64,000 bases of DNA from Pseudobdellovibrionaceae bacterium (GTDB lineage Bacteria; Bdellovibrionota; Bdellovibrionia; Bdellovibrionales; UBA1609). Numbering within the stretch: position 1 is the stretch's first letter; every line of letters begins with the position of its first letter. Under the pieces are notes generated by a model. It did not search any database and was not told where the DNA came from. It saw nothing but the letters and a program-made list of their open reading frames with translations. Location: the NCBI GenBank assembly GCA_947444305.1, contig CANEZP010000013.1, positions 65,375-129,374 on the forward strand, written 5' to 3'. The translations under genes and the position numbers were made by a program. This document shows positions 2,399-22,389 of this stretch, piece by piece.

Positions 2399-5300
2399 GC
2401 GTTTCTCTTTCGATTTCACTTCGAAGTTCATATCCATATCGACCTTCGTCATCTCGAGAGGAAATTGCGTTAAGCCTTCTTCCTCTTCCAAGACGGTGTA
2501 AAAGCCGGGAAACGAAGGCACGATGCGCTTGTAGGTGTCGCGCATGTGCGCGAGCGGCCAATCGATCGTTCGCTCTTTGGGCGTAACCATGTTCTTGGTC
2601 ATTTCCCAGAACGAGATGCCTTCTTGCTTACGAATCAAACCGATGAAGCTGCCGAAATCGCGGTAACCACGCAGGGCCAGAAGCCACGGGTGGTTATAAA
2701 GATCCGCCTGATCCAGCATATCGCCTTCGGTAAAGTGCTGCGTGAAGTAGAAGTACATCTCGTCCACGTAGCGCGGTTGGGTCACGTGGCGTCCCTCGCA
2801 AACGAACATCGAACGAGCCGTTCCGTGTACCTTAGGTTCATAGGCAATCACGCCGTAGAGATCGAGGGATCGCAGGAATTCTGGCGTGAAACTCATCGCG
2901 TAGCAACGTTCGTACTCGTCCAAACGCACGCGGAATTTCGCGATCTGCGCGACGAGGTAAGTCGACTCACTGATCGAAGTTCCGTCCCCGCGCGAAGTGG
3001 CCGTGCTCCAGCCGGCTTTGATCGACAACGGCTTGATGAATGAAGTTAGCGGGGCAATGACTTCGGAAGCTTTCGACAGCGCACCCGCTCCCGTTGCGGC
3101 TAAGGCGCTGCCCGGTGAAGCATTGGCCAAGCGGCCCAGAGAACCCGAAACTCCGCCCGCGGCACCGATGAAGTCGGTGCCTTCGAGACCCACGCCCAAT
3201 GAATAGCCCGTCGAGCGGCCAACCGAAAAGGATTGACCGACGTTGATGTTCATTTGGTAGCCGCCCAAGAAAACGTACGAGTCATCGGCATCGCCCGTTC
3301 TAAAAACGCGAAGCTTCTGATCGAAGAAAACCGGACTTTGATTATTGGCCAAACATTTCGCTAATATTTCGCGCGAGAGCTGCCCGGTGTCTTTTATATA
3401 AGGAACACCGGTAGCGCTAAACGAGCCTACCTGAGCGTTATTAGCCGCAAGCGATTGTGAGAAGTTGGCCGTCACCAGCGAACACGCGGCGTAGCGACGC
3501 GCGTTTTCGTTCTTCGGTACGAACAAAGCGCGCTGGAGATCGCGGACATCCCACTCGGTGGCCTTGACGTCGCGAACCCCGGTCACCCAGGCTTTAATGT
3601 CCGAAACCAATCCACCGGTCAGTGCTAAATTTGAGTTTACCCATGAAAGAGCGCGATCTACCGGCACCCACCGATCGGTGGTTTCCGTCATGCAGGACAC
3701 GAGGTTATTTCCACAACGGGCAAACGTTGCCGAATCGAATTCAACGGCTTTGGGTTTCTCGTCGGCGAGCGAAAGGAAGTTCATCGAATACGCTTGCGCG
3801 TAATTGTAGACCGAGCCGACGGCCGGGATGTTGGTCTTGTAGATGTAGCGATATTTGTCTTCGCGCTCGATCAGGCTATCGACGTGTGCATAGCACAAGT
3901 GCCGAAGCGAACCGAAGTACTCGCTAAATTTGTAAAGCGTATTTTCGCGCGTTTTCGAAGCGAGCTGCTCGGACTTGCTGAAAAGTTCGCGGCGGTAATC
4001 GTCCATCGCCCGTTCACGATCGTCTTCGAACTGAACTTTTTGGTCGCACTTTGCTTCATCTAAGTTGTCGGTCGCGCGAACGGAGTCTTTGTAACCGTTC
4101 GATAAGAAGATGACCGGACCGACGAAGGTACGCCGCGCGAGACCGGGGCCTTTCTCGGTGATGTCGTCGGGTGAATCGCCTTGTTCCACGAAGTGATCGC
4201 AGTCGATTTCCGAACACGGCGGAAGTTTGATCGTCGTAAAATCATTGGTCGCGAGATTATCCGAAAGCGCCGTCTTGTTCACGTCGAGCAATTCTTGGAT
4301 TTCTTTGCCGAAAGACAAGATCTGTTCTTCGCTGATCGATACGGGCTCCATGCTTACGCCCGAAGCGTTGCCCTGCTTCAATTGTGAAGAAAGCAGCGAG
4401 AATAACGTACGCGTCTTCTCGCGGCGATTTTCGATCAACTTATCGGTGCGAGCGTCTTCTTCCGCCCGGATTTTATTCTGATCGTATTCAGAAACCTTCG
4501 AAGTTCCCAAGAGCGCGTTTCGCTCTTTGCGTTCTTTAGCGAGATTATCGAGGTAGCCGCCAAAGTTACCGCGCAGTACGTTCTCGACCTGTAACTGATG
4601 TTCGTCGACCGGCTGCAATTCGATCAAGAAGTTCGAGCGAACCCGCATCATTCGCAAATCTTGCATCGTGAATTCTACGGGCTGAATGATCACGCCGTCG
4701 GTTGAACGTACCAAAGCGGTTTGCGTGCTAATGAATTCACGCTGGGGAACGTCGATGCCCAACCGGCGAAGACGCGTACGCGCGTTCTTCGAATCCGAAG
4801 CCATCCCGTCGACCGTAACACCTTTTTGCTGCTCACCGGGCACGGGTAAAGTCTTTTGACCGGCGACCACTTCGGCGCTGTTGTCGGACTGCGCCTCTTT
4901 TAGCGCGTCGATGTGGATACCGACCTGCGCGGGATCCAGATAATTTTTCTGGATTCCGACCTTCATGAGCCAGATCCCATCCCGCAAGGGTTCGGTCAGT
5001 TTACGGGCGTTGATGATGCCTGAGTAACGAAGTACGCGCGGATCCAACTCCATGAGAACGGTCTTACGGACCTCGAGCGCCATGAGCGAGTCGATATTGT
5101 ATTGGAAACGCACGGTGTGATAGCCAAAATCCGCCAAGAAAAACCGGCTCGGAATTTTCTTACGGCCTAACAACTGTTTCCAAAAATCAGGCTGAAATTC
5201 GCGTTCGTCGAAGCCGAAGGTGAACTTGTCGTCCCACGGATTGATGTAGAAACGCAAATCCCGCGCGAAGCCGCTGGCTTTGGCAATCGTCACGTTTCGC

Positions 5301-6781: not shown

Positions 6782-7916
6782 AATCAGTCTCCACCCCAAC
6801 GTATATAATAGATAAATCGCGCTGATTGGGATCGCGGTTGATTGGTTCGGCCTGGTAATTTTCGGCGTAAATCGAGAAGCCTTCTTTTTTGAAATGCACA
6901 TTGGCCTCGATGTTGTAACCGGTACGATTGGTGTTTCCGAATTTAGATTTACTGTACGCCGCGACCGTCGAATCACTTTCGGTAAAGAACGGACGCACGC
7001 GGAGATCGACGACGATATCGCCGAAGATCATCTTAGGTCCGATGCCGACCAACTGGGCATCGGCCGAATCGCCCGGTGCCTTCATGTTGTGAACACGTTC
7101 GTATTCGATGATCCCGCTGATCCACGATCCGGTGCAGAGACAGAGGCTTCCGGCGGCGTACCAACCTTGATGATCGTAAAGAAACCGGCTGCCGGCGATA
7201 TTCTCGCCCACGCCGACGTTACCGACCAAGCGGCTGTCACTGACGACTTTGTCGGGAATATTAGACCAATCGTAGAGTCCGACGCCGGCCTTCCATTCGA
7301 TCAATCCGAAGTTCTTGTCGGAGAGCTGTAAGGTCTGCGTGCTGAAAGTCGGCATCTTCTCTTGCGTGGCCCGTTCGGTATTTAAAGAGTGTGAAGTAGG
7401 AATGACTTGTTGAACGATCAAGCGTGCGTTGAAATCACCCGTTCCGTACTTCGCGATCGCTTGCGCGCCGGGGAACGAGCGCTGTCCCGAGATCAAAAGA
7501 CTCGTGCCGTGAAAACCTTGATTTATGGCCCCCGCGCGCAGCTCGCCGAACTTTACCGGTTCGAGCGCGACGTAACCGTCGTACATCCAAAGCCGGCTCT
7601 CTTCGCCGGAATCGGAATAACGTTCTTGAACGCGTGAGGAAAAAACACTGGCGCGCGGTTCAAGTCGTGCGCGCAACCAAGGTGCGAATTTGTAATCGAG
7701 ATTAAAGCCCGCGTAGAAGAAAGCGGCGGCTTCGTTGTCTTTGCCGTGGACGAGCGAAATCCCGCCCATAGAAAGGTTCCATTCGCCTTCGAGCTTGCGC
7801 GGCGGGAGCTCGGCACTCTTGAGCGTTGACGACGCCGAGTTCTGCCCGAACGCGGGCAAAGAAAAGGCGATCAATACGCTGAAAAGCATTTTGCTAAACT
7901 TGGACCCCACTAACAT
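6768..7916 (-). CDS. Predicted outer-membrane beta-barrel protein (module 3 barrel)
   Basis: 382 aa. Sec signal peptide MLVGSKFSKMLFSVLIAFSLPAFGQ, alternating beta-strand-like sequence, C-terminal ...GVETDYAPF (terminal Phe typical of OMPs). AGGA-type RBS upstream. Confidence 0.7.
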   Translation of the reverse strand: MLVGSKFSKMLFSVLIAFSLPAFGQNSASSTLKSAELPPRKLEGEWNLSMGGISLVHGKDNEAAAFFYAGFNLDYKFAPWLRARLEPRASVFSSRVQERYSDSGEESRLWMYDGYVALEPVKFGELRAGAINQGFHGTSLLISGQRSFPGAQAIAKYGTGDFNARLIVQQVIPTSHSLNTERATQEKMPTFSTQTLQLSDKNFGLIEWKAGVGLYDWSNIPDKVVSDSRLVGNVGVGENIAGSRFLYDHQGWYAAGSLCLCTGSWISGIIEYERVHNMKAPGDSADAQLVGIGPKMIFGDIVVDLRVRPFFTESDSTVAAYSKSKFGNTNRTGYNIEANVHFKKEGFSIYAENYQAEPINRDPNQRDLSIIYVGVETDYAPF

Positions 7917-8405
7917 TCCATCCTATTCAAGGCTTTGTCGTTAGAACCGGTTAAGTACAATTTCTATTCCAAATCGCAGACTTATCGCCGCGTGTTCAAA
8001 AATCGTTAAATTGAGCTTTGCATCGCTTATACGCATCGTGGGCACCTCAGCGCAATGGGATTTCCGTCAAGATTTGGATCGATTGTGATAACGCATGAAA
8101 TTTTTTACCGACTTGCGCGAAGTTTGATCAGGCGCACGCCGACCCCCTCATAAACGCAGGGTGGGACCACCGGAGCTGTTGCAAGAACTACCCGTTGCCA
8201 TTTTGGGTGCGTCCAAACCAGGCGGTCCGGAGGCAACCCGAACCGGGCCTCCCAGAACATTTTTTAAATACTTTTAATTTATATGCCGCCGAAGCGAGTC
8301 TTTCGTAGGTATCTAATGGGCTTACCTACACGGTAAGGACACAACGCGCATGGACTTCAGCGGCGCCGATTTGTACAAATGGAGTCAAATCATCCAGGAG
8401 CGAAC

Positions 8406-9704
8406 ATGCAAGCCTTCAAACCCCTGCGCGAAGTCCCCAAAAATTCCTACTCAGATAAAGATGTGCTCGTCATCTTCGGCGAAGTTTTCGCCCGCGGCTA
8501 CGTCAACGGGTTGATCGATGAGGCCAAGAAAGCCGGCATGAAGGTAATCTACAGCACCGTCGGGCGCCGAGACGAGAATGAACAACTTCGCCCCCTGACC
8601 GCGGAAGAGCTCGCGACCAAAGATCAACCGCTGATCAATATCCCCCTCGAATGCGGATTCGACCTGACCAAGTCTTCGAAGGGCCAATCGCCCGCCGATC
8701 AATTGAAAGGCCTGAAACTCAGCGAATGGGACAAGGCCGAAATGGATTTCGGGCAGGTCGAAGAGTCGCGCCGCAAAGGCCGGGAAGATTTCCGCAAGCG
8801 CGTGGCGCAGTACATGGTCGAACTCGAAAAAATGATTCCGGCCGGCGCCAACGTTTTGTTCGCGCACACGATGGCCGGTGGCGTTCCCCGTGCGAAAATC
8901 GTCTTGCCCGCGATGAACCGGGTTTTTAAGGGGCATGGCGAGCGCTACGCTTCGTCGAAACAGTTTTGGGAAGGCACGCTCGGCAAGTTCAGCGAAATGA
9001 GCTTTATGGACGTCACCGCGAATAGCTTAGCCGACTTGGTCGATCTTTCCTCGGCATTACGTGAAAAAACAAAAAAGTCCGGTGGCGCGGTTTCCTACGT
9101 GGCGTTCGGTTACCACGGAACCGAGATTTTAATCGACGGTGAATACCAGTGGCAATCCTACGCCCCTTACCTACAAGGCTTCGCGAAAATCGAGCTAGAA
9201 AACATCGCCCGTCGTTCGCTCGAAAAAGGTGTTCCCGTTAGCGTTTACAACGCGCCCGAAATTCTGACCAACTCGAGCTCAATTTTTTTGGGCGTCGAAG
9301 TGGCGCTCTATCCCCTGCTCGGCGCGCTGATGAAAGAAGCGCCCGACCATCCGGTCACGAAGCAATTGGTTAAGGATTGCGAAGCGCTGCTCAAGCCGGA
9401 ACACTCGCTAGAAGAAATTCTAAAAATCACCAACGATTACTTCACTTCCGACATCATTTTAAAGAATTGGACCAAGTACGAGCAGTGGCCGCAACACAAC
9501 GGCCCTGAGCAAATGGCCTTGATGCGCACGACTTCCGAGAAAATCATCGACATGCATAAGGATGAAAAGCACCTGCTCACCGCGAAGCTCAGTGAAATTG
9601 TATTCAACGCTTGCGGAAAAGCGATGATTAGCGAGGGTAAAAACCCGCGCGAGGCCGTCTGGTGGGTCGGCCACGATCTCGTTTCTAAATTGACGTTAGT
9701 ATAA
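8406..9704 (+). CDS. Conserved hypothetical protein, distantly FabV / trans-2-enoyl-CoA reductase-like
   Basis: Start moved to the ATG at 8406, preceded by AGGAG. VSVYNAPEILTNSSSIFLGVEVALYPLLGALMKE resembles the FabV/TER block SV-K-A-VT-ASS-IP--PLYL--LFKVMKE. There is a Y-x8-K spacing in YAPYLQGFAK. The N-terminal Gly-rich dinucleotide motif is not conserved (VLVIFGEVFARG). The comparison is from memory only. Confidence 0.45.
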   Translation: MQAFKPLREVPKNSYSDKDVLVIFGEVFARGYVNGLIDEAKKAGMKVIYSTVGRRDENEQLRPLTAEELATKDQPLINIPLECGFDLTKSSKGQSPADQLKGLKLSEWDKAEMDFGQVEESRRKGREDFRKRVAQYMVELEKMIPAGANVLFAHTMAGGVPRAKIVLPAMNRVFKGHGERYASSKQFWEGTLGKFSEMSFMDVTANSLADLVDLSSALREKTKKSGGAVSYVAFGYHGTEILIDGEYQWQSYAPYLQGFAKIELENIARRSLEKGVPVSVYNAPEILTNSSSIFLGVEVALYPLLGALMKEAPDHPVTKQLVKDCEALLKPEHSLEEILKITNDYFTSDIILKNWTKYEQWPQHNGPEQMALMRTTSEKIIDMHKDEKHLLTAKLSEIVFNACGKAMISEGKNPREAVWWVGHDLVSKLTLV

Positions 9705-10559
9705 CGGGCCGGCTTTCACGCCGATGTTGTAGACGAAATAAGCGAGCGGTGCCGCGCTGACGGCGCCGAGGATAAGGCCTTCGGGCAAAGTTTTCTTGGG
9801 CACGAAACCCAGCCAGTCGCGGATCCATAGGACGAAGTACGGCAGGCAAAGGTAAATCATGTGCCAGGGATTAATATCTAGATAGAAATGCCCGGCGGCC
9901 ATCAGTAAAATCACGAACACCGATAAAAACGGCACGAGGGCGTTCATACTAAGGCGCTGTGGTTTTACGAGCGCTAACACCAAGGCCGCGCCGAACAGCG
10001 CACACGCGACCGAAACGATCTGCGAATACGAAGCGCTAGCCGCGAACAACATCAAGAGACTCAAACCCGTCGCGGCGATAAGCGGCAGCAGAATCAAGGT
10101 CGTGGGCATCACCTTCGGGGCCGTTTTTTCGACGATCGACCACACGCCCAAGGCTAAGCAGAAAAACGCCACGAGATTACGATAGTAAATCGGCGCGAGG
10201 ATCGTTTGGCGAAGGGGATATAAAATTACGGCACCGAGTGCGAGCACGAAAAGCGCGCGGACCAAATACCGGTGGCCCAGCGGTTGCGGCCGCACAAAGA
10301 TGAACACCGCTAATAACAGCGCGGCGAGACTGAAGGCCTCCCCGGCGTCGGTCGGAGGAACGTGCAGGCGCCGGATCAAAACAAAAGCGCCCGCGGAGAA
10401 CGCGAGCGCGAAAACCAAACCTTGGGCGCGTGCCTTCCAAGGTTCTTTAAGAAATCCGAGAAGAAAAATCACCACCGCCGCGACCGAAGCCGGCGCAACG
10501 GCGCTCATCAAAAAGGCGCGGACGATGGGTGAATCCATATTAGATCTTTGTTCCTTCAA
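9696..10559 (-). CDS. Polytopic inner-membrane protein, unknown function
   Basis: 287 aa with about 8 hydrophobic segments. An alternative ATG at 10538 would remove the 20-nt overlap with yceI-like. It is the last gene of the same-strand run. Confidence 0.6.
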   Translation of the reverse strand: MKEQRSNMDSPIVRAFLMSAVAPASVAAVVIFLLGFLKEPWKARAQGLVFALAFSAGAFVLIRRLHVPPTDAGEAFSLAALLLAVFIFVRPQPLGHRYLVRALFVLALGAVILYPLRQTILAPIYYRNLVAFFCLALGVWSIVEKTAPKVMPTTLILLPLIAATGLSLLMLFAASASYSQIVSVACALFGAALVLALVKPQRLSMNALVPFLSVFVILLMAAGHFYLDINPWHMIYLCLPYFVLWIRDWLGFVPKKTLPEGLILGAVSAAPLAYFVYNIGVKAGPLY

Positions 10560-11115
10560 CCGAGATTTGAACTTCGACTTCGTCGCCGACTTCGCCGGGT
10601 TTAGCCATGTAGTTCATGCCGAAATCCGTGCGCTTGATCGTTAACGTCGTGATGCCGCCCGTGCGAACGTTGTTCCAGGGATCTTTGCCGGTTTTCATTT
10701 GCGTGAAAGTAAATGAAACGGGTTTGGTCACGCCGTGCAGCGTGAGGTCGGCGGTGACGTCGTACTTCGCGCCGGCTTTTTTGACCGTTTTGCTTTTCAA
10801 AGTCATGGTTGGAAACTGTTTTACGTTAAAGAAGTCAGGGCTCTTTAAGTGATCGTCGCGCTTCTTTGCCATCGTGTTGATGGTGTCGAGCTTTGCGCTC
10901 ACTTCGAAGGTCGATTTTTCGGGATTTTTTTCGTCGACGACGATCTTACCGTCGGCGCCGCCGATCATGCCGTACACATTCGAGAATCCCATGTGATCGA
11001 TTTTGAAAACGATCGCGGTGTGATCCGGATCAACTTTGTATGACGTCGTTTGTGCCTGGGCTTGTGAAACAGCGGCGAATGAAATCGCGGCTAGAGCAAT
11101 TGCTAGAACTCTCAT
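10540..11115 (-). CDS. YceI-family periplasmic (polyisoprenoid/lipid-binding) protein
   Basis: 191 aa. Signal peptide MRVLAIALAAISFAAVSQAQA, then YKVDPDHTAIVFKIDHMGFSNVYG and ...TLHGVTKPV blocks typical of the YceI-like domain. Confidence 0.85.
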   Translation of the reverse strand: MRVLAIALAAISFAAVSQAQAQTTSYKVDPDHTAIVFKIDHMGFSNVYGMIGGADGKIVVDEKNPEKSTFEVSAKLDTINTMAKKRDDHLKSPDFFNVKQFPTMTLKSKTVKKAGAKYDVTADLTLHGVTKPVSFTFTQMKTGKDPWNNVRTGGITTLTIKRTDFGMNYMAKPGEVGDEVEVQISVEGTKI

Positions 11116-11178
11116 GATGTTTACCTCCGTATAAAATTGTTCTTATATGAAACAACGTAGAAAAGGTAAGCTCAAGGA

Positions 11179-13602
11179 CTAAATGCAATTGGGTGGCATC
11201 AAGAGATCAGAACCTAGACACGGGATCTGCGGCATATCCGCGTTCGGCGGCGGTGGATCCGGTTTCTTAACGGTATCGAAAAGCTTGGCGATAATCACCT
11301 TGAACACCGTCGATAAATCTGCGCGATTTAAACTCAAGTTACCGGTTCGGACGTAAGTTAACCAAGCAATATCCCAAAAACCGGTAGGCATCTCGCGGTT
11401 CGTAAGGATGTAGTAAAACGCACCCTTGGCTTGGCGGTCGCTCAAGTTCTGGTTCATTTTATCCTTCGCAAATTTCTTGATGAAACCCATGAAAATCTCG
11501 GCCGCGGGGTCGATCTCCGGGTTGCTCAAAGTGCCGTCCCGGTCGGCGTCGAAGCGGGTCATCACGGCCTCGGCGTAGTGCATGACGACCGCGAGCGTGG
11601 TGAACTCGCTATATTCAACCCACGGCGTGACGGAGTTTTTAGGCGAGAACGCCGTTTCAAGCAGCGTTCGTGCATGCGCCTGGCGAATCGGGAGCGGCGC
11701 GACCCGCAAGAACTGCTGCAGATCAGGCATGCTGCCTAAATGAGCATCGAAGGTCGCGGGCAAATTTTCGAGTACGCAATTACGATCAAGCTTAGGACGC
11801 TTGTACATATCCGGTGGGCCATGGGGGCAGACCGCTTTGAGATCCGCGTAGAAGTCGTCGGCCAGGCGCCCGCCCGAAAGCATGAACGAAAACAACTCGA
11901 TCGCCTCAACCATTCGTAAACGGCCCTTCGGCGCGCCGGGCTCCGAATTAATACCGTCGCCCGAATAGGTGAAAAGATTGGCGGCGGTAAAATCCCGGTT
12001 CCCCATGTTTGGGTTGCGCTGATCGACCAACTTAAGCGCGATCCCGATCTCACGGAAATCGGCGTAAAACTTTTCGACCTCTTCGAGCGTGATGCCTGAG
12101 TCGAAGCCGATGCGGCTGCCCGCGTGCTCGGCGTAACCGCGGAACAACGCTTGCGCCGAAGTCCGCCATAGATTCATCAACGTTAGATTGTGGTAAGTGT
12201 GCCGCAAATTATTGCGCGCGAGATCTTCGTGCCGAACGAGTCCGACGCGGTAGCTTCCGTCCGCGAATAAGGGGCGCATAAGACCGCGCAAGGATAAGAA
12301 ATCATCCCATTCGGAACTGCCGAGGCTCTTGAGTTTCAAGCGAACATCGGGGGTCATGTACGGTCTGATCTGCACGTTCGGCACGACTTTTTGCGCAGCG
12401 AGAGTACCCGCTAAGCGTGTGTCCAAATTCATTTGGATATAGGCCCAGCGAAAGAAAATATCCCGCGCGCGAGCCACGTTGGTCAGCGCTAAGCCTTCGG
12501 TCTTACGCTGACTGGCCGGGATCTCGGGATCACCCAAAATTCGGGTGACCACGGCCGCAAGAGCCCCGTTGATGGATGACGGCGGAATGTGCGCGGGGAT
12601 CCAGCGTAAATCATAGGTCGCCTTCGTTAACTCATCGAGCTGCGCGAACCGGATCGTCAGCCCCTCTTGTTTCGAGGCGGCTTGCTCGATCAAATTAAAT
12701 ACGTCGTTCGCGAGCTGAATCGTATTTTGCAACCCTACCCCGCGTAAGATCGGCTGGTCCTTTACCCCGATTTGATATTGGAGATAGACGAGGTACCAGC
12801 GAGCGAACGATTGCAGCATGGGCGTCCACTCGAGCGGCCGCACCGTGTTCGGATCGATCGGCGCAACGGTGAGCTGGCGGAAAATACGGATGAAGCTCAC
12901 CCATTTTGCGGGCGAGATCGCGTCGGGAAAGTGTTCATCCCAACCGGCGAACGCGCGGAATTCGACCAGCAAACTTTGCAGGCTCGCCAACGTATAATTG
13001 CGCTGATTGCGCTGCAGACGCATGGCTAAAGTTTTGATCACCGAGTTGAGCGCTTCGTTCGCATCGGCTAAGCGCTTGCCGAGGGTTGCGGGATCTTGCT
13101 CCTGCGCCAAGCGCGGATTCAAAACGCGAAGGTGGGGTTTCAAGCGAATCGCTTCGTTTTTGAACTCTTCAAGCATTTCGACCAGGGCGTGCAACTCTTC
13201 GCGCGAAATCGCCGTGCTCGAACCGCCGAGGATCGCTTGTTTGAGAATCATAACTTCGCCCATGAGTTCGTCTTTCAAACGACGCTCGTTCAAAAAGAAG
13301 CTATGCAGGAACTGACGGATTTCATCGGGCGAATAAGAGGTGGCATTGCGCCCTCGGGTCAGTTGCGCGAACGTGGTGAACGCCTTTTGCAAACAGCTCA
13401 CGAACTCGGTCACTTGCTCGTTCGAAAGTTGATCGTTTACGTAGCGGTCGAAGTGCTCGGGAATTTTACCGACGCAGCTAAAACCTTTGCCGCTGTACGA
13501 GGGCGGCGGGCGTTTGGGCGCGCTTTCACCAGTGGATAACCCACAACCCGGCAGCGCCAGTGAAATCGCGACCACGAAGGACAGCGGTGTTTTAAAAAAC
13601 AT
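11179..13602 (-). CDS. Large lipoprotein B2 (807 aa), paralogue of B1, with a canonical EF-hand loop; unknown function
   Basis: Signal peptide plus lipobox MFFKTPLSFVVAISLALPGC. Aligns with the 15071-17161 product from the N-terminus (SNEQVTEFVSCLQKA) to the C-terminus. Contains DADRDGTLSNPE. The ATG lies 11 nt inside the upstream barrel gene. Confidence 0.8.
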   Translation of the reverse strand: MFFKTPLSFVVAISLALPGCGLSTGESAPKRPPPSYSGKGFSCVGKIPEHFDRYVNDQLSNEQVTEFVSCLQKAFTTFAQLTRGRNATSYSPDEIRQFLHSFFLNERRLKDELMGEVMILKQAILGGSSTAISREELHALVEMLEEFKNEAIRLKPHLRVLNPRLAQEQDPATLGKRLADANEALNSVIKTLAMRLQRNQRNYTLASLQSLLVEFRAFAGWDEHFPDAISPAKWVSFIRIFRQLTVAPIDPNTVRPLEWTPMLQSFARWYLVYLQYQIGVKDQPILRGVGLQNTIQLANDVFNLIEQAASKQEGLTIRFAQLDELTKATYDLRWIPAHIPPSSINGALAAVVTRILGDPEIPASQRKTEGLALTNVARARDIFFRWAYIQMNLDTRLAGTLAAQKVVPNVQIRPYMTPDVRLKLKSLGSSEWDDFLSLRGLMRPLFADGSYRVGLVRHEDLARNNLRHTYHNLTLMNLWRTSAQALFRGYAEHAGSRIGFDSGITLEEVEKFYADFREIGIALKLVDQRNPNMGNRDFTAANLFTYSGDGINSEPGAPKGRLRMVEAIELFSFMLSGGRLADDFYADLKAVCPHGPPDMYKRPKLDRNCVLENLPATFDAHLGSMPDLQQFLRVAPLPIRQAHARTLLETAFSPKNSVTPWVEYSEFTTLAVVMHYAEAVMTRFDADRDGTLSNPEIDPAAEIFMGFIKKFAKDKMNQNLSDRQAKGAFYYILTNREMPTGFWDIAWLTYVRTGNLSLNRADLSTVFKVIIAKLFDTVKKPDPPPPNADMPQIPCLGSDLLMPPNCI

Positions 13603-14983
13603 AACTTACGCCCCCGAAGAAGCGGTCGTTCGCGCGGTAAGTCGAGAACAATCCCGCGCGGTCGGAGTTTGAATCGACGTCGGCCCCGAGCACATCGGCC
13701 CCGAGCAACCAGGTCACGTCACCTTGGGCAAACTCAACGCTGGTCGATAGCCAACCGCCCTTTTCCGGGATCGAGTAGCTGTAGCGGCTACGTAAGGAAA
13801 GACCGTTGCTCTTCGTTTGCGAGAGCACGATGCGCCAGTCCACCGAAGCCAAGTCTTTGAAGGGATACCGGTCGAGCGAAGACTTCACTTGATCATCGGC
13901 GACGATGCCGCCGGTCGCTGATTTCCCCATCGAGAAAACGCGCATGTAAGAGTAGCCGAGCCACGACGGCTTGCCGATTACGCTGAAGACGTAATGTGAA
14001 TATCCGAGCCCCGCGACCAACATCGGATCGAGCGGCGCTTCGAGCCAAGGATCGGGGAACCCCGACTTGCTCGGCACGTCGACGGTCGCCGAGACCCACC
14101 CGTGGTCGTCGGTGCGGTCAAAACCCATCTCCCACGTTAGCACGTGGTGTTTAACGATCTTTGGATGAATCACGGCCGTGACTTCAAGCCCTTGGCCCGC
14201 GCCGATACGCGCGCAGTTCGAGCATTCGATGCCTAAATGAATTTGGTTGCGCGGCTTGTACGCGTAATTCAAATTGGTCCAGAAGTCGTTCAAGAATTCG
14301 TAACGCACCCCGAGCCCGAAGCTTGAGTGCATGATGATGTCTTCCTCGGTGGGCTTATCGATTTCGAAAAAGAGCGGGCCGTCTTTCGTGACGGGGTTAT
14401 TGCCCTGAAACTGCAAGCTTGAATGCGGTTGCTCAAACCAACGGTTTGAGGACTCGAAACGCCCGTTGGCCAGCCGGTACTGTGGCCCCTGATCCGGGAA
14501 CGCGAGCGGCGACGTGAAGAATGTAAAGCTGAGCTCGGAACCTAGCCGCCAATCGAAGAAAACGCCGGTCAAACCTTGTTGAACGGGCGCCAGGTAATCC
14601 CAGCGCAGCTGCGGTTGCCAGAGGCCGAGGTTGAATTCCTCATCCATCTTGCTCCACGTACGCTTAGCCCGTCCGATCGTCAGATTGAACCACGGCGCAA
14701 TTTTGCGCGGCATCACGTAGGCTTCGGGTACGCCGAAGTAAAACTCGTCACGGTTTTTGAAATCGCCCTGCGCACGTGAATTGAATTTGTATGTAAATCC
14801 CGAGGTTTCGGTTTCTAAGTTCAAGTCGGTCGCGATGAGCGTGTAGTTTGATTCTTGATTAGGATTGGGGACCGCCCCGAAATACCGGTTTTGGCGTAAA
14901 TCCAAATCCAGGTAATTGGCGGCGGACTTGGCGAAGAGAGGTCCGCTCATAATGAGGAGAATCAAAACAATAAAAAATCGCAT
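13592..14983 (-). CDS. Predicted outer-membrane beta-barrel A2 (463 aa), paralogue of A1
   Basis: Signal peptide MRFFIVLILLIMSGPLFAKSA, beta-rich sequence, C-terminal YRANDRFFGGVSYVF. Shares IGRAKRTWSKMDEEFNLGLWQPQL with the A1 block LGRKKERWNEWEGEWRQGLFQPRY. Confidence 0.75.
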   Translation of the reverse strand: MRFFIVLILLIMSGPLFAKSAANYLDLDLRQNRYFGAVPNPNQESNYTLIATDLNLETETSGFTYKFNSRAQGDFKNRDEFYFGVPEAYVMPRKIAPWFNLTIGRAKRTWSKMDEEFNLGLWQPQLRWDYLAPVQQGLTGVFFDWRLGSELSFTFFTSPLAFPDQGPQYRLANGRFESSNRWFEQPHSSLQFQGNNPVTKDGPLFFEIDKPTEEDIIMHSSFGLGVRYEFLNDFWTNLNYAYKPRNQIHLGIECSNCARIGAGQGLEVTAVIHPKIVKHHVLTWEMGFDRTDDHGWVSATVDVPSKSGFPDPWLEAPLDPMLVAGLGYSHYVFSVIGKPSWLGYSYMRVFSMGKSATGGIVADDQVKSSLDRYPFKDLASVDWRIVLSQTKSNGLSLRSRYSYSIPEKGGWLSTSVEFAQGDVTWLLGADVLGADVDSNSDRAGLFSTYRANDRFFGGVSYVF

Positions 14984-15070
14984 TTGATTCCGATGTTTTA
15001 CACGGATATAGGCAGTGGTTTCAATTTGGAGCCAAGTATCATGTAGTCTTTACTTGGCCGTAGTCGGCAT

Positions 15071-17161
15071 TTACAGTTTCGACAGTTGGTTCAAAATTCC
15101 CATCAAATGGGTCCGCTCGCTCTCAAAAACCCAGTCATTTTGATGCCACTTCCAGTGATTGTAAAGAATCTGCCCCCCGAACATGGTGAAAGGCGTATCG
15201 CCGTACTTCATCATGAAGGTAAAAAAACCAAAGAGTTCTTCGGGCGGAAGGCCCACCGACGACAGCATTTTGCCTAGTATTGGCCCGTATACCGTAAACG
15301 CCGGCGTAGCTTCGGGTAAAGACACTGTGTCCGTAAAGTCACGATCGTATCGCAAAAGAAAGGTTTCGACGTACTGAAAGAGCATCCAAACCTGAAGCAC
15401 ATCGGCCGTGCCGAACTCCCCTTGGGTGACTTTTTCGAGGATCGTCTCTTCACCGGCCTTGAAATAGGCCACGAAGCGCGGGACCGCGTCCTTTTGACTC
15501 AACCAATTTTGTAGACGTGGGAGTGGCGCTAAAATATCGCGGCTAAGGTCGCCGCCGATTTCGCGCATGCAAACGGCGTCGAAACCTGCGCAGGCCGATT
15601 CGGCCTCCGTCATCCAGATTTGCGCCGCCCTAAAACTCGAAGCGATGAACGCGAGGTAGCGCGAAGCTTCGAAAAGATCGATCGTCCCGTTACCGTTAGA
15701 GGCCAGCGTAAAAAGGTCGCCTTCGCGCAAAAGCTTTTTACCGATCGTGTCTTTGGTTTCGGTCAGCCAGCCGAACTTGCGCATCGTCGTTAAAATTTCG
15801 AGACCCGCCGCCTCCATAACTTTATCGTTCACCTCGGCCTCGCCGCCGGGCACGAAAGCGTCCTTAAGCAGGTTCATCACCACGAACGGCCAAACCATGT
15901 GGAGCCGGCCCACGGTGGTCCAACTCGCCGCCGGATTTTGCGGAAACGCCATGCGCCCACGCTCGTCCCACTCCTGCGCGGGACCGGCGGCTAACGTGTG
16001 CTCGAATCGCTCTTGCACCGGACCGGCCGCAATTTTTTTGTTTAAAGCAACCTCCCGAAGCGAGCGCCAATCGGCGAAGACCGTTTTTAAGTAAGCGAGG
16101 TGATCTAAAGTCACGGCGCACGCGGGTTTGCCTAAGCCTTTCGCCGCCACCCGGTCGAGAACCCAGCCCAATGTATGCATAAGGTTGTCGGTCGCAAACT
16201 TCCCGGTAAGGAATCCGGCTTCCTCTGCCCGTACAAAAAGCTCACGCCATTCGCTTAACGGAATCTCTTTCCCGTCGTGCGCGCGGGCCGAACGTTCAAG
16301 AATTCCGAGAGCGTGTTCGAAACCCGCGGGCAGAACGTCACGGCTTAAAGCGGTATTTAAGTCATCCTTGAAGGCATAGTGCACGCTTAAGAAACTGCGG
16401 TAACCTTGCCCGAGGGCCGCGGTTAACACGCGCCATTCCCGGCCGCCAATTTGGGCATTTGATCCACTCAACAATATTTGTTTTGCGGCAGGAAGAACTT
16501 TAAGGAATTTTGCGGCGGCGCCGTCTTCATTCTTTTCCAGTGCCCGGGCTAACTCCCGCAATTGCGTGAACGTGTACGCCTGTCCGTTAGTCTCGAGCCA
16601 CGAACCAAGCTTGGCGAACGATCGCTCGGCCACGGCGCCCGCCGTCTCGATCTCTTCGTCGGCGGCCTTTGAACTATTGAGAAATAAAACGTCGACGTGC
16701 GGATTGAGCTCGATCGTTATTTCTTTGAGTAGCTGCAAGAACTCCTGCATGACGGCAAGCTCATTGCGGCTAATCGAACTGTTTTCACCGGATAAGGCGA
16801 CTCGCTTTAGCTCCATCAACGCGGCGAGAAGGTCATCGCTAATACCACCGGATTTAAAGAAATATTTTTGCAAGAAACGTCGGAGCGCTTGCGGCGTGTA
16901 GCCACCCTCCGCCTGATCACCGGATGTAAGGCGTTGATAATCGCCGACCGACTTCTGCACGCAAGACCAAAACTGTCCGACCTGCGTGTCGGAAAGCTCG
17001 CCGCGTTTGTATTTTTCGACGTTCAAACCGAAGTTGCCGAGGCAATCGCCACCGTCCTTCAGCATGACTTGTACGGGTTGGGCAGGCTTTACGTTTTCTT
17101 TAGCGCAACCGGCGGTAAACCCAAAAATTAGAAGTAGCGCCGGTACGATCTTAATAAACAT
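15071..17161 (-). CDS. Large lipoprotein B1 (696 aa), paralogue of B2; unknown function
   Basis: Signal peptide plus lipobox MFIKIVPALLLIFGFTAGC. The conserved N-terminal Cys pair and the blocks SDTQVGQFWSCVQKS and ISRNELAVMQEFLQLLKEITIELNPHV align with B2. The ATG lies 11 nt inside the upstream barrel gene. Confidence 0.8.
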   Translation of the reverse strand: MFIKIVPALLLIFGFTAGCAKENVKPAQPVQVMLKDGGDCLGNFGLNVEKYKRGELSDTQVGQFWSCVQKSVGDYQRLTSGDQAEGGYTPQALRRFLQKYFFKSGGISDDLLAALMELKRVALSGENSSISRNELAVMQEFLQLLKEITIELNPHVDVLFLNSSKAADEEIETAGAVAERSFAKLGSWLETNGQAYTFTQLRELARALEKNEDGAAAKFLKVLPAAKQILLSGSNAQIGGREWRVLTAALGQGYRSFLSVHYAFKDDLNTALSRDVLPAGFEHALGILERSARAHDGKEIPLSEWRELFVRAEEAGFLTGKFATDNLMHTLGWVLDRVAAKGLGKPACAVTLDHLAYLKTVFADWRSLREVALNKKIAAGPVQERFEHTLAAGPAQEWDERGRMAFPQNPAASWTTVGRLHMVWPFVVMNLLKDAFVPGGEAEVNDKVMEAAGLEILTTMRKFGWLTETKDTIGKKLLREGDLFTLASNGNGTIDLFEASRYLAFIASSFRAAQIWMTEAESACAGFDAVCMREIGGDLSRDILAPLPRLQNWLSQKDAVPRFVAYFKAGEETILEKVTQGEFGTADVLQVWMLFQYVETFLLRYDRDFTDTVSLPEATPAFTVYGPILGKMLSSVGLPPEELFGFFTFMMKYGDTPFTMFGGQILYNHWKWHQNDWVFESERTHLMGILNQLSKL

Positions 17162-18587
17162 AGCTTAACCCCAATCCGATGCGGTCGTTCGCGCGGTAAA
17201 GCGCTAAGAAGCCGTCTTCGACTTCGGCCGGACCACTCAGTAGCCCAAGGAAATCCATTTCGATATCGCCGCGAAAGTTCTTGCCGAAATTCATGCCCGC
17301 CGACAGCCCGGCGATGCCCCCGTTTTGTAAGCGGTCGTAGACGATACGTAGTTCCGTCTCCAAAGGATAGCGCGCCGCCGTTCGCCAAGGTTTCTTAATG
17401 CCGAGTAAATAAGCTTCATTGAATTGGTAGCGCCGCTCGAAAAGCGTGCGGTTCGAAGCGAAGGCGCCGCGATCGGGGGCGTCACCGCCGTTGATTTTCA
17501 GAAAACCAAGTTTTGCCCGGGCGGCGTACGGGCCTTCCGCTTCGAGTGCGCGTGAAACCGATGCCGAAGTGATCCACGCCGGCGCCGCTTGCTGAGCGGT
17601 AAAATCGTCGCGCGCCCCTGCCCGGTCGGGAATCTCGTGCGCGACGCTGCCGGAATAGGTCCACGCGCCGGCGCGAAATACGGAATCGTGACTGACCAAC
17701 GTGTGGTACGCCAATCGCGGCGTCACCCGAATATTCACGTAATCTTCGTTAGCGCCGACAAAAAATATATTGTTCGATGGAAAGCCCAACAGGAATTGCG
17801 GCATCGGTTTGTAGGCGGCAGCTAGACGGCAGAAGTAATTTTTTGCGCCGTTCAGCTCAAGCTTTGCGACCGCGCCCACGTGAGAAGTGGCTTCCTTTAT
17901 CGTCGGCTGATCGATCGAGTAACGAATATCACCGACCACCTGCCGGTATTCAAACTGCGCGGCCGGTGGATTGAACCACGGGTTACGTGATACGAAGCGA
18001 TTATCTTCGGAAGTGAATCGTGCCGCGAGATCCGGAATATGCACCGGCAAAAAACCGATCGCGAGCGCAACGGGTTCGGTGTTCTGACTGTAAAAGAGCC
18101 CGGCGAGCCCCGCCTCTTCGTTGCGATATTTGTTGATGAGGTAGCGTGGTTGAAAAAGCCCTTGCCGCCACTCGCCTTCCCATTCGTTCCACCGTTCTTT
18201 TTTCCTGCCTAGCGAGAATGTGCTGAGATCGGTGGGTCGCCACTGAAGCGCGGCTTCGTAGATATTGACGTAATTCCATTCCTCGTTCGCCGAGTACTGA
18301 TCGCGGCCGTTTAAGCGCAGTCCGAACTTGCGCCATCGGCGATCGATATCCGCGCCGAGGGAAACACCCGGCTGGCTGCGCGCGGCCCCAGGCCGGAAAT
18401 AGTTCTGCCCGCCGGAGACATATTCGTCGTTGAAAACTTTGAACTGAGCGGCGGTCGAAGACTTCACCGCGGGCGACCCGCTTTCTAATTTCAAGCGTGA
18501 GGAATCGGCCGGTTGCGCATTCGCGCTGGTCGCAAATAAAATTATGCTTAACGATATAAACGATGAAACAAAATGTGAACGAAACAT
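17151..18587 (-). CDS. Predicted outer-membrane beta-barrel A1 (478 aa), paralogue of A2
   Basis: Signal peptide MFRSHFVSSFISLSIILFATSANAQ, beta-rich sequence, C-terminal YRANDRIGLGLSYVY. Confidence 0.75.
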   Translation of the reverse strand: MFRSHFVSSFISLSIILFATSANAQPADSSRLKLESGSPAVKSSTAAQFKVFNDEYVSGGQNYFRPGAARSQPGVSLGADIDRRWRKFGLRLNGRDQYSANEEWNYVNIYEAALQWRPTDLSTFSLGRKKERWNEWEGEWRQGLFQPRYLINKYRNEEAGLAGLFYSQNTEPVALAIGFLPVHIPDLAARFTSEDNRFVSRNPWFNPPAAQFEYRQVVGDIRYSIDQPTIKEATSHVGAVAKLELNGAKNYFCRLAAAYKPMPQFLLGFPSNNIFFVGANEDYVNIRVTPRLAYHTLVSHDSVFRAGAWTYSGSVAHEIPDRAGARDDFTAQQAAPAWITSASVSRALEAEGPYAARAKLGFLKINGGDAPDRGAFASNRTLFERRYQFNEAYLLGIKKPWRTAARYPLETELRIVYDRLQNGGIAGLSAGMNFGKNFRGDIEMDFLGLLSGPAEVEDGFLALYRANDRIGLGLSYVY

Positions 18588-18654
18588 TTAGGCCACCCCC
18601 GCCCCACTCACCGTTTTATAAAACCGGCGTCGGGAGTAGCAAGCTATTTAGTTT

Positions 18655-19449
18655 TTATATGGAAACTTCGCTGACGTGCCGCTCTGCCGATGAATTCCAC
18701 GCCACAATTTTCTGAACGGTCCACGCAGCATCATCCCACGGTAAATCGTGTCCGGCCCACGCGTGCCGCTCGATCGGCCAACCCCATTTATCGTGCAAGA
18801 CGGTTGAGCAAGATGGATCGACTAAGCGATCCCCCAAACCGTTGAGCAGAAGCACCGGAAGATTGACCGGCTTTTGCAAACCATCGAAGAACGCCGCCGC
18901 GAGCAATTGATTCGTAAAATTGAGATAAGAAATCGGCCGTTCGATCGCGAGCTTAATCCATGGCGGGAGTGCCTTGGCCCGTGCTTCTTCGCTGTTCATG
19001 ATGATTTCGATGATTTGACGTTCGCGTTCTTTCGCGGATTGGGTCGCCAACATTTTTCCAAACTTCGACCAAACTTGCCAACGCATGCGATGATACAGCG
19101 GACTCAAAGATTTAGCGCTCGTATTGATGAGGACCGCACCGGATAAATCTTCGGGCCGCTGGTTCATCCACTCCATCGCGACCATTCCGCCGAGCGAAAC
19201 GGTAAGGAGTTTAAATTGCGATTGCGATCGCGCACGTTCAATCGCTTTGGCGCGCACGAAGGTGAATATCTCGCCCATGGATTTGGGGCTGCGTTCGTCT
19301 AAGAACTCGCCACTGCCCGGAAGATCAATCGGCAGCACGTCGTCTTTCGGAAATGCCTGTTTGAATAAATCTAAAAAATTGCCCCAGTGGCCATGCTCGC
19401 GCGCGAGTCCGCGCAGTAAAATCCACGCCGTTGTTTTTTCAGTCGGCAT
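18655..19449 (-). CDS. Alpha/beta-fold hydrolase
   Basis: 264 aa. LLRGLAREHGHWG N-terminal block, nucleophile-elbow-like TVSLGGMVAM, C-terminal His region (AWAGHDLPWD). The ATG overlaps the stop of the upstream peptidase gene by 11 nt. Confidence 0.7.
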   Translation of the reverse strand: MPTEKTTAWILLRGLAREHGHWGNFLDLFKQAFPKDDVLPIDLPGSGEFLDERSPKSMGEIFTFVRAKAIERARSQSQFKLLTVSLGGMVAMEWMNQRPEDLSGAVLINTSAKSLSPLYHRMRWQVWSKFGKMLATQSAKERERQIIEIIMNSEEARAKALPPWIKLAIERPISYLNFTNQLLAAAFFDGLQKPVNLPVLLLNGLGDRLVDPSCSTVLHDKWGWPIERHAWAGHDLPWDDAAWTVQKIVAWNSSAERHVSEVSI

Positions 19450-20437
19450 ACCAAAGCTCCATCGCCTTTACGAGATTGCGTTCCCGTTGTTCATCCGTAA
19501 GGTGAACCCAAGCGTCGGGCGAAAGCAAGGCGCGGTGAAGGAAATCGAACAAACTCAAATGGCGCCGTAAGATGCGCCGCCGGCGATGCGGCATCATGGG
19601 ATCGAACATCCCGCTCTTCGAAAAAACTTGCAGCGGATTCTTTTTAAGCCAAGCCCACGATCCCATCTCGAGACAGAACGGCAAAAAGAATCCCTGTTGC
19701 GGATTTTTGCGTGACTCTTCGAACGTGTAATCCCAAGGATCACCGTGGATCGTATATTGTCGCGACATCGGTTCGTAGACGTAGAAATGATTCGAATACG
19801 TCACGTCGAGCATTGTTTTGAGTGCGTACGCTTCGGCCAAAAAAGGAAACGGGCGCCGCGTGTGCGCGTACGGAAACCAAAAACGATCACGCGCGCCGAA
19901 ACCTGAGTGCACGTCCACGGTGATGCTGATCGTAGACGTGAGCAACTCGGTCTCTAACACTTCGATCAGCGCTTTGTTCTCCACTTCCATCTCGGCGCCT
20001 TTGACGCCCCGATAGTACGGCAACTTATTCGAAACGCGGTGCCCGCGGTAAAACGGGCCCGGCTTACCTTCACCGTCGAGCGGAGAATTTCTCATAAGAT
20101 CGACGCCGTTCGCGTTCGAGCGGGTGCGATTGACCACGCCCGCGGGATTAACGATCGGCATGAACACCAACCGCGAATGCTTCAAGCGTTCCTGAAAGCT
20201 TTTGTCCCAGCGGAGCAATTCAAGCAGCGTGTGCATGTGCGACAAGACGACTTCCGAGCCGATCTTTTCTAGGCCATGCGCGCCCGCAAAAATCCCCAGT
20301 GACGGGGCCTTCGGATCGGTGCTGCCGATGGCTACGGAATAGAGCGGATAGGTTTTGTCGCCGTCATGAACTTCGGCGACGTTACGAACGCGCGCGCTTG
20401 AACCAAAACTCTCGATCAAGAGTTCAAGATCGGCCAT
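19439..20437 (-). CDS. M14-like zinc carboxypeptidase / succinylglutamate-desuccinylase-superfamily protein
   Basis: H-x-x-E in FAGAHGLEKIGSE and a later VDVHSGFG His. Start moved from 20509 to the ATG at 20437 (MADLELL), which leaves a plausible divergent promoter region with acs. Confidence 0.55.
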   Translation of the reverse strand: MADLELLIESFGSSARVRNVAEVHDGDKTYPLYSVAIGSTDPKAPSLGIFAGAHGLEKIGSEVVLSHMHTLLELLRWDKSFQERLKHSRLVFMPIVNPAGVVNRTRSNANGVDLMRNSPLDGEGKPGPFYRGHRVSNKLPYYRGVKGAEMEVENKALIEVLETELLTSTISITVDVHSGFGARDRFWFPYAHTRRPFPFLAEAYALKTMLDVTYSNHFYVYEPMSRQYTIHGDPWDYTFEESRKNPQQGFFLPFCLEMGSWAWLKKNPLQVFSKSGMFDPMMPHRRRRILRRHLSLFDFLHRALLSPDAWVHLTDEQRERNLVKAMELWYAD

Positions 20438-20529
20438 TTCTGTGAAGGTGCGTCTTGCGGGTAGTATGGACACAGCGTGATTATACAAGTTGTTGCGAGG
20501 ATGGTGCAACTAACTAACGGGGGGAATCT

Positions 20530-22389
20530 ATGTCGCAAGTGCCGGCCGATCAGGACAAGTTCTGGGATGAAATTGCCTCTCGTCTAACGTGGACGAAGCC
20601 CTGGACCAAGACCAAGAGCGTGGACTTTAAAAATCCCGTAAAAATCGAATGGTACGGCAGCGGTGAACTTAACGTCTCGTACAACTGCATCGACCGTCAC
20701 CTGCCGCGGCACAAAGACCGGGTGGCATTGTACTGGGAACCCGAGACCGACAAGCACAAGCCTTTAGCGATCACTTATCAAGAACTGCACGACCGGGTCT
20801 GCCGGCTTGCGAATAGCTATAGGAAATTGGGAATTAAGAAGGGCGACCGGGTTACGATCTATTTGCCGATGATTCCCGAAGCGGCCTACGCCATGCTCGC
20901 TTGCGCGCGCATCGGCGCCATTCATTCGGTCGTGTTCGCGGGATTTTCACCCGACTCAATCAGCGACCGCATCGAAGACGGCGAGAGTGATTACGTTATT
21001 ACCGCCGACGAAGGTTTGCGCGGGGGCAAGACCATTCCGCTTAAAGCGAACGTCGACGAAGCGCTTAAGAAATCACCGCGCGTGAGAAGTGTAATCGTCG
21101 TTAAACATACCGGCGGCCAAGTCAACTTCACTTCCGGCCGTGATCATTGGTACCATGACCTCACCGCCGGGATGCCCGCGACTTGCGCGCCTGAAAACAT
21201 GAACAGCGAAGATCCGCTCTTCCTGCTTTACACATCGGGTTCCACGAATAAACCGAAGGGTGTCTTGCACACGACCGGCGGTTACCTCACTTGGGCCGCG
21301 TACACGCACGCGCTCGTTTTCGATTACAAACCCGAAGACGTCTATTGGTGCGCGGCGGACATCGGCTGGGTGACCGGCCACTCGTACATTCTTTACGGCC
21401 CGCTCGCGAACGCGGCCACCGGCGTGATGTACGAAGGCTTGCCGACTTTCCCCACCGCCTCCCGCATTTGGGAAATCGTCGATAAATATAAAGTGAACAC
21501 GCTTTACACCGCGCCGACTTTAATCCGCGCGCTAATGGCCTTAGGCGAAGAGCCGGTGAAGAAATGCTCGCGCCAATCTTTACGTTTGCTAGGTTCGGTG
21601 GGCGAGCCGATCAATCCCGAAGCGTGGTCATGGTATCACCGGGTCGTCGGCGATTCGCGTTGCCCCGTCGTCGATACTTGGTGGCAAACCGAAACGGGCG
21701 GCATTCTTATCTCGCCGGTCCCCTTCAAAACCGAACTCAAACCCGGTTCGGCGACGAAGCCCCTACCCGGCATCAACGCGGTCATCGTGAATGAAAAAGG
21801 CGAACGACTCGAGGGTGCGTGCGAAGGGCATTTGTGCATCGACGGCTCGTGGCCCGGGCAAATGCGATCCGTATATAAAGACCACGAACGCTTTTACCAA
21901 ACTTACTTCTCTACTTATCCGGGCCTGTACTTTACCGGTGACGGCGCCCGTCGCGATGCCGACGATTATTATTGGATCACCGGCCGGGTCGATGACGTCA
22001 TCAACGTTTCCGGTCACCGCCTGGGCACGGCCGAGATCGAAAGTGCTTTGGTGGCGCACGCAAGCGTTGCCGAGAGTGCGGTGGTGGGATTCCCGCATGA
22101 TATCAAGGGCCAAGGCATTTATGCTTACGTAACTTTGAATAAGGGCGCGACGGCTTCCGAGGACTTACGTAAAGAACTTGCGGAGTGGGTGAAGAAAACT
22201 ATGGGTGGATTAGCTAGACCAGACTTCATTCAGTGGGCGCCGGCGTTGCCGAAGACCCGTAGCGGAAAAATTATGCGCCGAATTTTGCGCAAAATTGCGA
22301 GCAACGATATCGACAATCTCGGTGATGTTTCAACGTTAGCGGATCCCTCCGTCGTCAAAGATTTGATGACCGCTAGACTCCGCACCTAA
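20530..22389 (+). CDS. acs: Acetyl-CoA synthetase (AMP-forming)
   Basis: 619 aa. [14 protein letters not shown]-binding motif, [43 protein letters not shown], and a C-terminal [11 protein letters not shown] lysine motif. Confidence 0.95.

Follow-up and report, generated by a model that had tools for sequence, protein, structure and literature searches.

A duplicated barrel-lipoprotein gene pair from Bdellovibrionota that probably encodes a new kind of outer-membrane complex

What kind of envelope system is specified by two consecutive copies of a gene pair, each joining an outer-membrane β-barrel to a large lipoprotein? The question is raised by a 64,000-nucleotide stretch of contig CANEZP010000013.1 from a Pseudobdellovibrionaceae bacterium (the window). 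Its minus strand carries barrel gene A1 (17151-18587, 478 aa), all-α lipoprotein gene B1 (15071-17161, 696 aa), the paralogous barrel gene A2 (13592-14983, 463 aa), and the paralogous lipoprotein gene B2 (11179-13602, 807 aa). To bring large or specific cargo across the outer membrane, diderm bacteria rely mainly on barrel-lipoprotein pairs, among them SusCD, LptDE, AlgEK, and Slam with its cargo; little is known about the envelope of the Bdellovibrionota, a phylum of predatory bacteria. A first-pass annotation, made from the DNA alone, had described the four genes as two tandem A-B units of a candidate envelope system, and its coordinates and lengths agree exactly with the open reading frames (ORFs). 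By sequence, A and B are two undescribed protein families joined as outer-membrane barrel and cognate lipoprotein; the module is probably a new kind of outer-membrane complex, with Ca2+ binding predicted for B. Beyond that annotation, the analysis reveals an EF-hand loop and EF-hand-like repeats in B, a large B family with long forms, lineages with a single pair, and a third, unrelated pair in the same window.

Within each unit the barrel gene comes first and overlaps the lipoprotein gene by 11 nt. At the A1/B1 junction (17151-17161, minus strand, TATGTTTATTAA) the ATG of B1 lies within the Tyr-Val codons of the terminal Y-V-Y-stop of A1, and at the A2/B2 junction (13592-13602, minus strand, TATGTTTTTTAA) the ATG of B2 occupies the Tyr-Val codons of the A2 C-terminus, so that both starts fall in a terminal Y-V-[YF]-stop. 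A sample of 46 pairs from about 27 loci was assembled from every B gene with upstream sequence, the loci having been collected by scanning species-representative genomes and metagenomic sequence and by contig look-ups. Wherever these loci carry a name, it is Bdellovibrionales, Pseudobdellovibrionaceae, or Oligoflexia. An A gene lies directly upstream of B in all 46, and in each of them B starts exactly 11 nt before the last base of A, inside the codons of the Y-V-F β-signal. The start and stop combinations are ATG..TAA (33 pairs), ATG..TAG (10), ATG..TGA (2), and TTG..TAA (1). Overlap and adjacency remain constant across this deeply diverged sample while the flanking genes vary. The first-pass annotation had pointed to the stop/start overlap and had proposed a survey of A-B adjacency, naming lost adjacency or matches to characterized families as grounds against its reading; the overlap is the same throughout, adjacency is conserved, and no such family matches were found. 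In the window, 87 nt separate B1 from A2. Counts from a promoter and terminator scan of 9500-20700 equal the shuffled expectation and, being at chance level, do not allow operon boundaries to be set. An Rfam scan of the window finds no RNA family.

The two units are related to each other. A1 and A2 align with a BLASTP E-value of 2e-19 (22% identity over 368 columns) and B1 and B2 with 8e-28 (22% identity over 709 columns), alignments that contain the blocks quoted at first pass; at the sequence level, the paralogy of both pairs is far above chance. In neighbor-joining trees, A1 and A2 form separate clades, as do B1 and B2, and the two topologies mirror each other. A2 is its own clade in every two-pair genome, and the single pair of an Oligoflexia bacterium (L018) branches basally on the A2/B2 side. 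These mirrored trees indicate one ancient duplication of the whole A-B pair. The A-B-A-B arrangement is found in 18 loci, and genuine single pairs in five (L018, L020, L023, L029, and L032), two of which have a long, multi-module B. One Bdellovibrionales metagenome-assembled genome (MAG) departs from the usual pattern: at L010 8962-11326, A1 is broken into two ORFs and B1 is only 312 aa long, with the second pair intact. Either pseudogene formation or faulty assembly could explain why the first pair looks disrupted.

Neither family matches a described one. A1 and A2 have no Pfam or NCBIfam match at E ≤ 1, and at the same threshold B1 and B2 yield nothing except faint EF-hand matches in B2; searches of PDB sequences give no match for B1 and nothing meaningful for the A1 sequence or the A profile, AlgE included. 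The failure to recognize either family at first pass is therefore borne out. Pfam searches of 35 A-family members return only scattered single matches, to Porin_3 and OmpG, at E > 0.01. A word-indexed search with A1 finds 44 homologs and one with B1 finds 10 relatives, all unnamed or labeled Bdellovibrionales; a further word-indexed search with the A profile adds only the A2 protein of the window. An exhaustive profile search gives a much larger B family of 1,574 representatives (50% clustering, E ≤ 1e-3), 927 of them at E ≤ 1e-30. The species-representative genome scan returned 14 loci, all from Bdellovibrionales, Pseudobdellovibrionaceae, or Oligoflexia MAGs; it used patterns from the A1 clade, and the true taxonomic range may be wider. 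Literature searches covering Bdellovibrio, EF-hands, and lipoproteins turned up no account of the A-B module.

The A proteins begin with a Sec signal peptide and end in an aromatic C-terminus of the Y-V-[YF] type. In A1, the signal peptide spans residues 1-24 (18516-18587, minus strand) and ends in ANA, and the C-terminal β-signal is YRANDRIGLGLSYVY (17154-17198, minus strand). The signal peptide of A2 (14930-14983, minus strand) ends in LFA, and its β-signal is YRANDRFFGGVSYVF (13595-13639, minus strand). An AlphaFold2 model of A1, built from a 35-sequence alignment, attains a predicted local distance difference test (pLDDT) score of 88.5 and a predicted TM-score (pTM) of 0.83. The model is all-β, with approximately 20 long strands, as counted from the DSSP string, that start at residue 44, preceded only by the signal peptide and a brief disordered segment. 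It contains no plug, POTRA, TPR, jellyroll, or periplasmic domain. The A1 model is confident and shows a barrel of about 18-20 strands with no plug, and sequence and model together give A the features of a Bam-dependent outer-membrane β-barrel, with Sec signal peptide, closed antiparallel barrel, and C-terminal aromatic β-signal. Per-column conservation over 30 A1, A2, and single-pair sequences peaks in the loops at 127-163 and 181-210, at 256-270, and at the C-terminus; with a mean conservation of 0.70, the C-terminal strand ranks above all other strands. The long loops exceed the transmembrane strands in conservation, which points to active surfaces on A. In A1, the conserved loops comprise residues 126-149 (LGRKKERWNEWEGEWRQGLFQPRY, strands 5/6) and 184-208 (IPDLAARFTSEDNRFVSRNPWFNPP, strands 7/8), encoded within 17964-18212 of the minus strand. 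Strand parity, read from the DSSP string without coordinates, would place both loops on the extracellular side.

Foldseek identifies AlgE as the closest structural match of the A1 model in the PDB (E = 1.4e-12), followed by OmpC/OmpF-type porins, OccK, and chitoporins. The AlgE alignments have TM-scores of 0.48-0.55, a root-mean-square deviation (RMSD) of about 9 Å, and 10% identity, with general porins close behind; the matches overall fall at TM-scores of about 0.4-0.55, an RMSD of about 9 Å, and about 10% identity. These results indicate a large outer-membrane channel-type barrel, without establishing that it belongs to any of the matched families. The PopA superfamily of Bdellovibrio combines a 16-strand barrel with a tight α-helical plug and forms a homo-oligomer with no lipoprotein partner (PMC12228718). 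A PopA-like, lipid-trapping porin was considered for A and rejected, the A1 model having no helical plug and PopA being absent from the 50 best PDB fold matches.

The B proteins have a lipobox, FTAGC in B1 (17105-17119, minus strand) and LPGC in B2 (13543-13554, minus strand), and the lipid Cys is kept in 117 of 120 aligned members. A lipid-Cys motif could be assigned in 136 of 159 B-family sequences; there the Cys is invariant by construction, position -3 is mainly L, V, or I, and position -1 is G, S, or A in 97-100%, making the predicted lipobox, [LVI]-x-[GAS]-C, canonical family-wide. Cys40 and Cys67 of B1 are kept in 118 and 120 of the 120 members, respectively, and both this pair and Cys524/Cys531 in at least 94%. 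The two pairs are predicted to form disulfides, and their conservation implies an oxidizing, extracytoplasmic location. The signal-peptide-bearing barrel with an aromatic C-terminus, the lipoboxes, and the N-terminal Cys pair, all read from the window at first pass, thus hold up in the model of A1 or across the B family, and it is very nearly certain that A is an outer-membrane barrel and B a lipoprotein. Lipoprotein tethers are normally variable, and a conserved tether is unusual. In B, the residues after the lipidated Cys (17090-17107 in B1 and 13525-13545 in B2, both minus strand) are strongly conserved, as C-A-[KR]-E-N in the B1 type and C-G-L-x-x-G-E-K-P-P-P in the B2 type, with E at +6 in 96%. 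This motif may serve as a sorting or docking signal.

The AlphaFold2 model of B1 (pLDDT 75.7, pTM 0.72) is all-α and consists of recurring helix/2-3-residue strand/helix units. Foldseek finds no PDB fold match for it at E ≤ 0.001, and the weak matches are enriched in EF-hand proteins, namely PR70, SOS3, KChIP1, the calpain penta-EF-hand domain, and CDPK. A zinc peptidase, as hinted at by weak ACE and M32 fold matches, was rejected: B1 has no HExxH motif on reading, and the match probabilities are at most 0.1. Residues 40-140 of B1 match residues 140-250 as an internal repeat (HHalign probability 95%, E = 3.7e-8). As modeled, B would be a stack of four-helix units, each EF-hand-like and about 100 aa long.

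An EF-hand loop is found near the C-terminus of B, at residues 606-617 of B1 (15311-15346, minus strand, DRDFTDTVSLPE) and, in canonical form, at residues 685-696 of B2 (11515-11550, minus strand, DADRDGTLSNPE). Among the 120 members, its consensus is D at position 1 (94%), D/N at 3 (88%), S/D/N at 5 (85%), I/L/V at 8 (95%), and E at 12 (95%). The sequences thus conform to the EF-hand loop D-x-[DNS]-x-[DNS]-G-x-[ILV]-x-x-x-E, and in the B1 model helices flank the loop, with a short strand inside it. A second, non-canonical EF-type loop at residues 487-498 of B1 (15668-15703, minus strand, ASNGNGTIDLFE) aligns weakly with the first; it keeps positions 3, 5, 9, and 12 (N/D3 87%, G4 96%, D/N5 72%, and E12 95%) and has no ligand residue at position 1. 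A profile of 94 B sequences matches ALG-2 (6.8e-6), neurocalcin, GCAP2, recoverin, and polcalcins (7e-6 to 1e-3) through the C-terminal loop segment. The individual Pfam EF-hand matches stay below the gathering score: residues 678-696 of B2 score a faint 11.7-13.2 bits against cut-offs of about 25, and other members 17-23 bits against cut-offs of 25-30. B resembles the ALG-2/penta-EF-hand proteins, neuronal calcium sensors, and polcalcins in its C-terminal helix-loop-helix, canonical 12-residue loop, and profile-level match. It differs from them in having one canonical loop and one partial loop, with no detectable EF-hand sequence signature in the rest of the protein, and in being lipidated, disulfide-bonded, and extracytoplasmic by prediction. 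From these loops, we infer that B binds Ca2+.

The AlgE match and the helical repeats bring to mind a polymer-secretion system, in which A would be the porin and B a periplasmic helical-repeat scaffold receiving exopolysaccharide or another polymer, as in AlgE/AlgK or a split form of the fused porin-TPR exporters BcsC, PgaA, and PelB. AlgE is the closest solved fold to A1, the AlgK-type partner is likewise an all-helical repeat lipoprotein, and the module number of B is expanded in some lineages, in the manner of a TPR scaffold; Ca2+ sites are common in polyanion-handling proteins. However, the gene order is reversed relative to algK-algE, the B units are EF-hand-like rather than TPR, and large barrels generically give TM-scores of about 0.5. 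Pfam finds no Alginate_exp match in 35 A-family members at E ≤ 5 and no Alginate_exp, TPR, or Sel1 match in any of the A or B members searched. No synthase, glycosyltransferase, polymerase, or OPX gene adjoins the module in the approximately 27 loci. Polymer export is improbable, the least probable of the readings weighed here.

B proteins vary considerably in length. Besides forms of 660-860 aa, there are forms of about 1,000, 1,220, and 1,450 aa (up to 1,480), which contain 2-4 repeats of a ~220-aa module spanning profile positions 105-325. Proteins of 1,220-1,480 aa with 3-4 modules are found at L020 (1742-6112), at L023 (8001-11663), and in the family representatives P0108, P0128, P0131, P0152, and P0176; L020 and L023 each carry a single A-B pair. 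Such variation, with 1-4 modules, would suit a cargo or adhesin on display rather than a cap, and it fits the idea that A serves its cognate B alone, as a translocon or assembly partner by which B is carried or threaded to the surface, by analogy with Slam (the type 11 secretion system, T11SS) or with the threading of RcsF through outer-membrane proteins. B would then be a Ca2+-dependent surface effector, acting for example in adhesion or in prey or surface recognition. As in the Slam systems, an outer-membrane barrel gene adjoins a lipoprotein gene, and A could work alike by exporting its neighbor; the one-to-one pairing is strict and the genes are coupled, the conserved loops of A are on the predicted extracellular side, and the unusual conservation after the lipid Cys (C-G-L-x-x-G-E-K-P-P or C-A-[KR]-E-N) suggests a recognized tether or export signal. 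In Slam itself, N-terminal TPRs precede a 14-strand DUF560 barrel and the cargo has a β-barrel domain, according to a review (PMC7857515) which also notes that surface-lipoprotein translocons outside Proteobacteria remain undiscovered. The A-B proteins lack each of these features: A has no DUF560 barrel or TPR domain, the A1 model, of ~20 strands, is without an N-terminal domain, and the all-α B does not have the C-terminal β-barrel domain typical of Slam cargo. A barrel of ~20 strands also exceeds the size needed for tether threading. On balance, surface export of B by A is unlikely. A more specific version, in which the pair is an unrecognized Bdellovibrionota-specific machine whose barrel exports or threads its coupled, Ca2+-switched EF-hand lipoprotein, with the 1-4 repeat modules contacting prey or substrate, is more doubtful still. 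If true, such threading would be a new surface-lipoprotein route outside the Slam and Bam-RcsF paradigms.

The reading that we prefer takes A-B as a conduit. Coupled translation would provide equal amounts of A and B, which would travel to the outer membrane via Bam and Lol, respectively, and assemble 1:1. A Ca2+-stabilized B would cap or extend the barrel as its substrate-binding or gating partner, and the complex would carry a substrate from one face of the outer membrane to the other. Having two pairs would mean two specificities or two halves of one larger assembly. That A and B form a physical complex is likely. The conduit function is put forward tentatively, at slightly less than an even chance, and the full chain of steps, with B as cap, adaptor, or gate of channel A, likewise falls just short of even. 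A conduit is favored because the nearest folds to A are all channels, because A is conserved in loops that would bind a partner or form the lining or cover of a pore, and because the long persistence of paralogous pairs suggests distinct specificities.

In outline, A-B comes closest to SusC/SusD or AlgE/AlgK. As in SusC/SusD (RagA/RagB) of Bacteroidota, the barrel gene is first and is followed by a gene for a large α-helical lipoprotein, linkage is tight, 1:1 stoichiometry is expected, and several paralogous pairs occur per genome. The likeness does not extend to sequence or fold: A lacks both the TonB-dependent plug and the TonB box and has about 18-20 strands vs 22 in SusC, B is neither SusD-like nor TPR-like, and the phylum is different. 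Pfam gives no Plug or TonB_dep_Rec match in A1 and A2 at E ≤ 1 or in 35 A-family members at E ≤ 5, and no SusD-like match in B; no SusD is present among the listed best Foldseek PDB matches of B1. LptD/LptE is also a barrel-lipoprotein complex of the outer membrane, but LptD joins a β-jellyroll to a 26-strand barrel that is plugged by LptE, a small β-sandwich lipoprotein, whereas A has no N-terminal domain and B is an all-α protein of 700-800 aa. None of the four proteins has an OstA, LptD, or LptE match in Pfam or NCBIfam. The first-pass annotation had seen no homology to SusC/SusD, Slam, or LptD/LptE, and the family and PDB searches likewise reveal no link. A-B thus lacks the sequence and domain features that define membership of SusCD, Slam, LptDE, AlgEK, and PopA.

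Several observations weigh against the conduit. The Foldseek TM-score of about 0.5 for A1 is generic barrel similarity, and the conserved A loops could occlude the barrel lumen. The B1 model is of moderate confidence overall and drops below a pLDDT of 70 in the C-terminal 90 residues. The span of B from 660 to 1,480 aa is unlike the uniform SusD-type caps, and a scaffold or cargo fits it at least as well. Finally, no substrate clue is kept in all genomic contexts, with L018, L029, and L032 having no flanking enzymes.

Whichever reading applies, the module comprises two protein families absent from Pfam, NCBIfam, and PDB and so far seen only in the predatory-type Bdellovibrionota. It offers experimental handles in the 11-nt overlap, where β-signal codons double as the lipoprotein start, in the post-Cys tether, and in the canonical EF-hand. 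A Ca2+-dependent conduit or a lipoprotein surface-export device would, if true, be a new type of outer-membrane system, and might partly explain how these predators take up or present material.

The genes around the module follow a conserved order of RNR, AcsA, M14 peptidase, α/β-hydrolase, A-B-A-B, YceI, a 287-aa membrane protein, and, on the opposite strand, FabMG. The genes for the peptidase, the hydrolase, YceI, and the membrane protein run in the same direction as A-B and are often present; they are absent in several lineages, leaving only A-B as the core. In the window, the M14 carboxypeptidase-like gene (19439-20509, minus strand; Pfam, with a weak MpaA-like match) overlaps the α/β-hydrolase gene (18655-19449, minus strand; Pfam) by 11 nt at 19439-19449, and both products, taken to be cytoplasmic, are without signal peptides. 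These two genes lie directly 5' of A in most loci, the single-pair locus L023 included, and are absent from L005, L018, and L021. They may be co-transcribed with A1, and they fit loosely with an uptake or catabolism unit. On the other side, a YceI-family periplasmic protein (10540-11115, minus strand; Pfam YceI, 1.9e-46) and a multi-pass membrane protein of 287 aa without family assignment (9696-10559, minus strand), whose gene overlaps that of YceI, follow B2 in many loci and are missing in L005, L017, L021, and L022. A FabMG-type enoyl-ACP reductase (8379-9704, plus strand; Pfam PF22046, E = 3e-179) separates the A-B cluster from the third pair and holds the same position in nearly all related loci.

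This housekeeping-like position between RNR/AcsA and FabMG, together with the near-universal presence of A-B in the sampled lineage, would also suit a structural envelope element that stabilizes or tethers the outer membrane, through Ca2+-dependent organization or a link to the cell wall, with no transport at all. The conserved A loops could plug the lumen, and the EF-hand could be a structural Ca2+ site. Against this, A and B have no OmpA_C, LysM, or SPOR peptidoglycan-binding domain, and the long upkeep of two diverged pairs suggests specificity, not bulk structure. We regard a purely structural role as quite improbable, if slightly less so than polymer export.

The window contains a third barrel-lipoprotein pair, C/D, at 2363-7916. 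It consists of a barrel-type protein of 382 aa (6768-7916, minus strand), which has a signal peptide, is β-rich, and ends in ETDYAPF, and of a lipoprotein of about 1,472 aa (2363-6781, minus strand; MRRFNQ...LTAC). Neither has a Pfam or NCBIfam match, and HHalign reveals no relation to the A or B families (probability <1%). The two genes overlap by 14 nt (TATGCGCCGTTTTAA) in a junction designed like that of A-B, and the pair is conserved in L025, L026, L028, and L030, where the ATG again lies within a Tyr codon.

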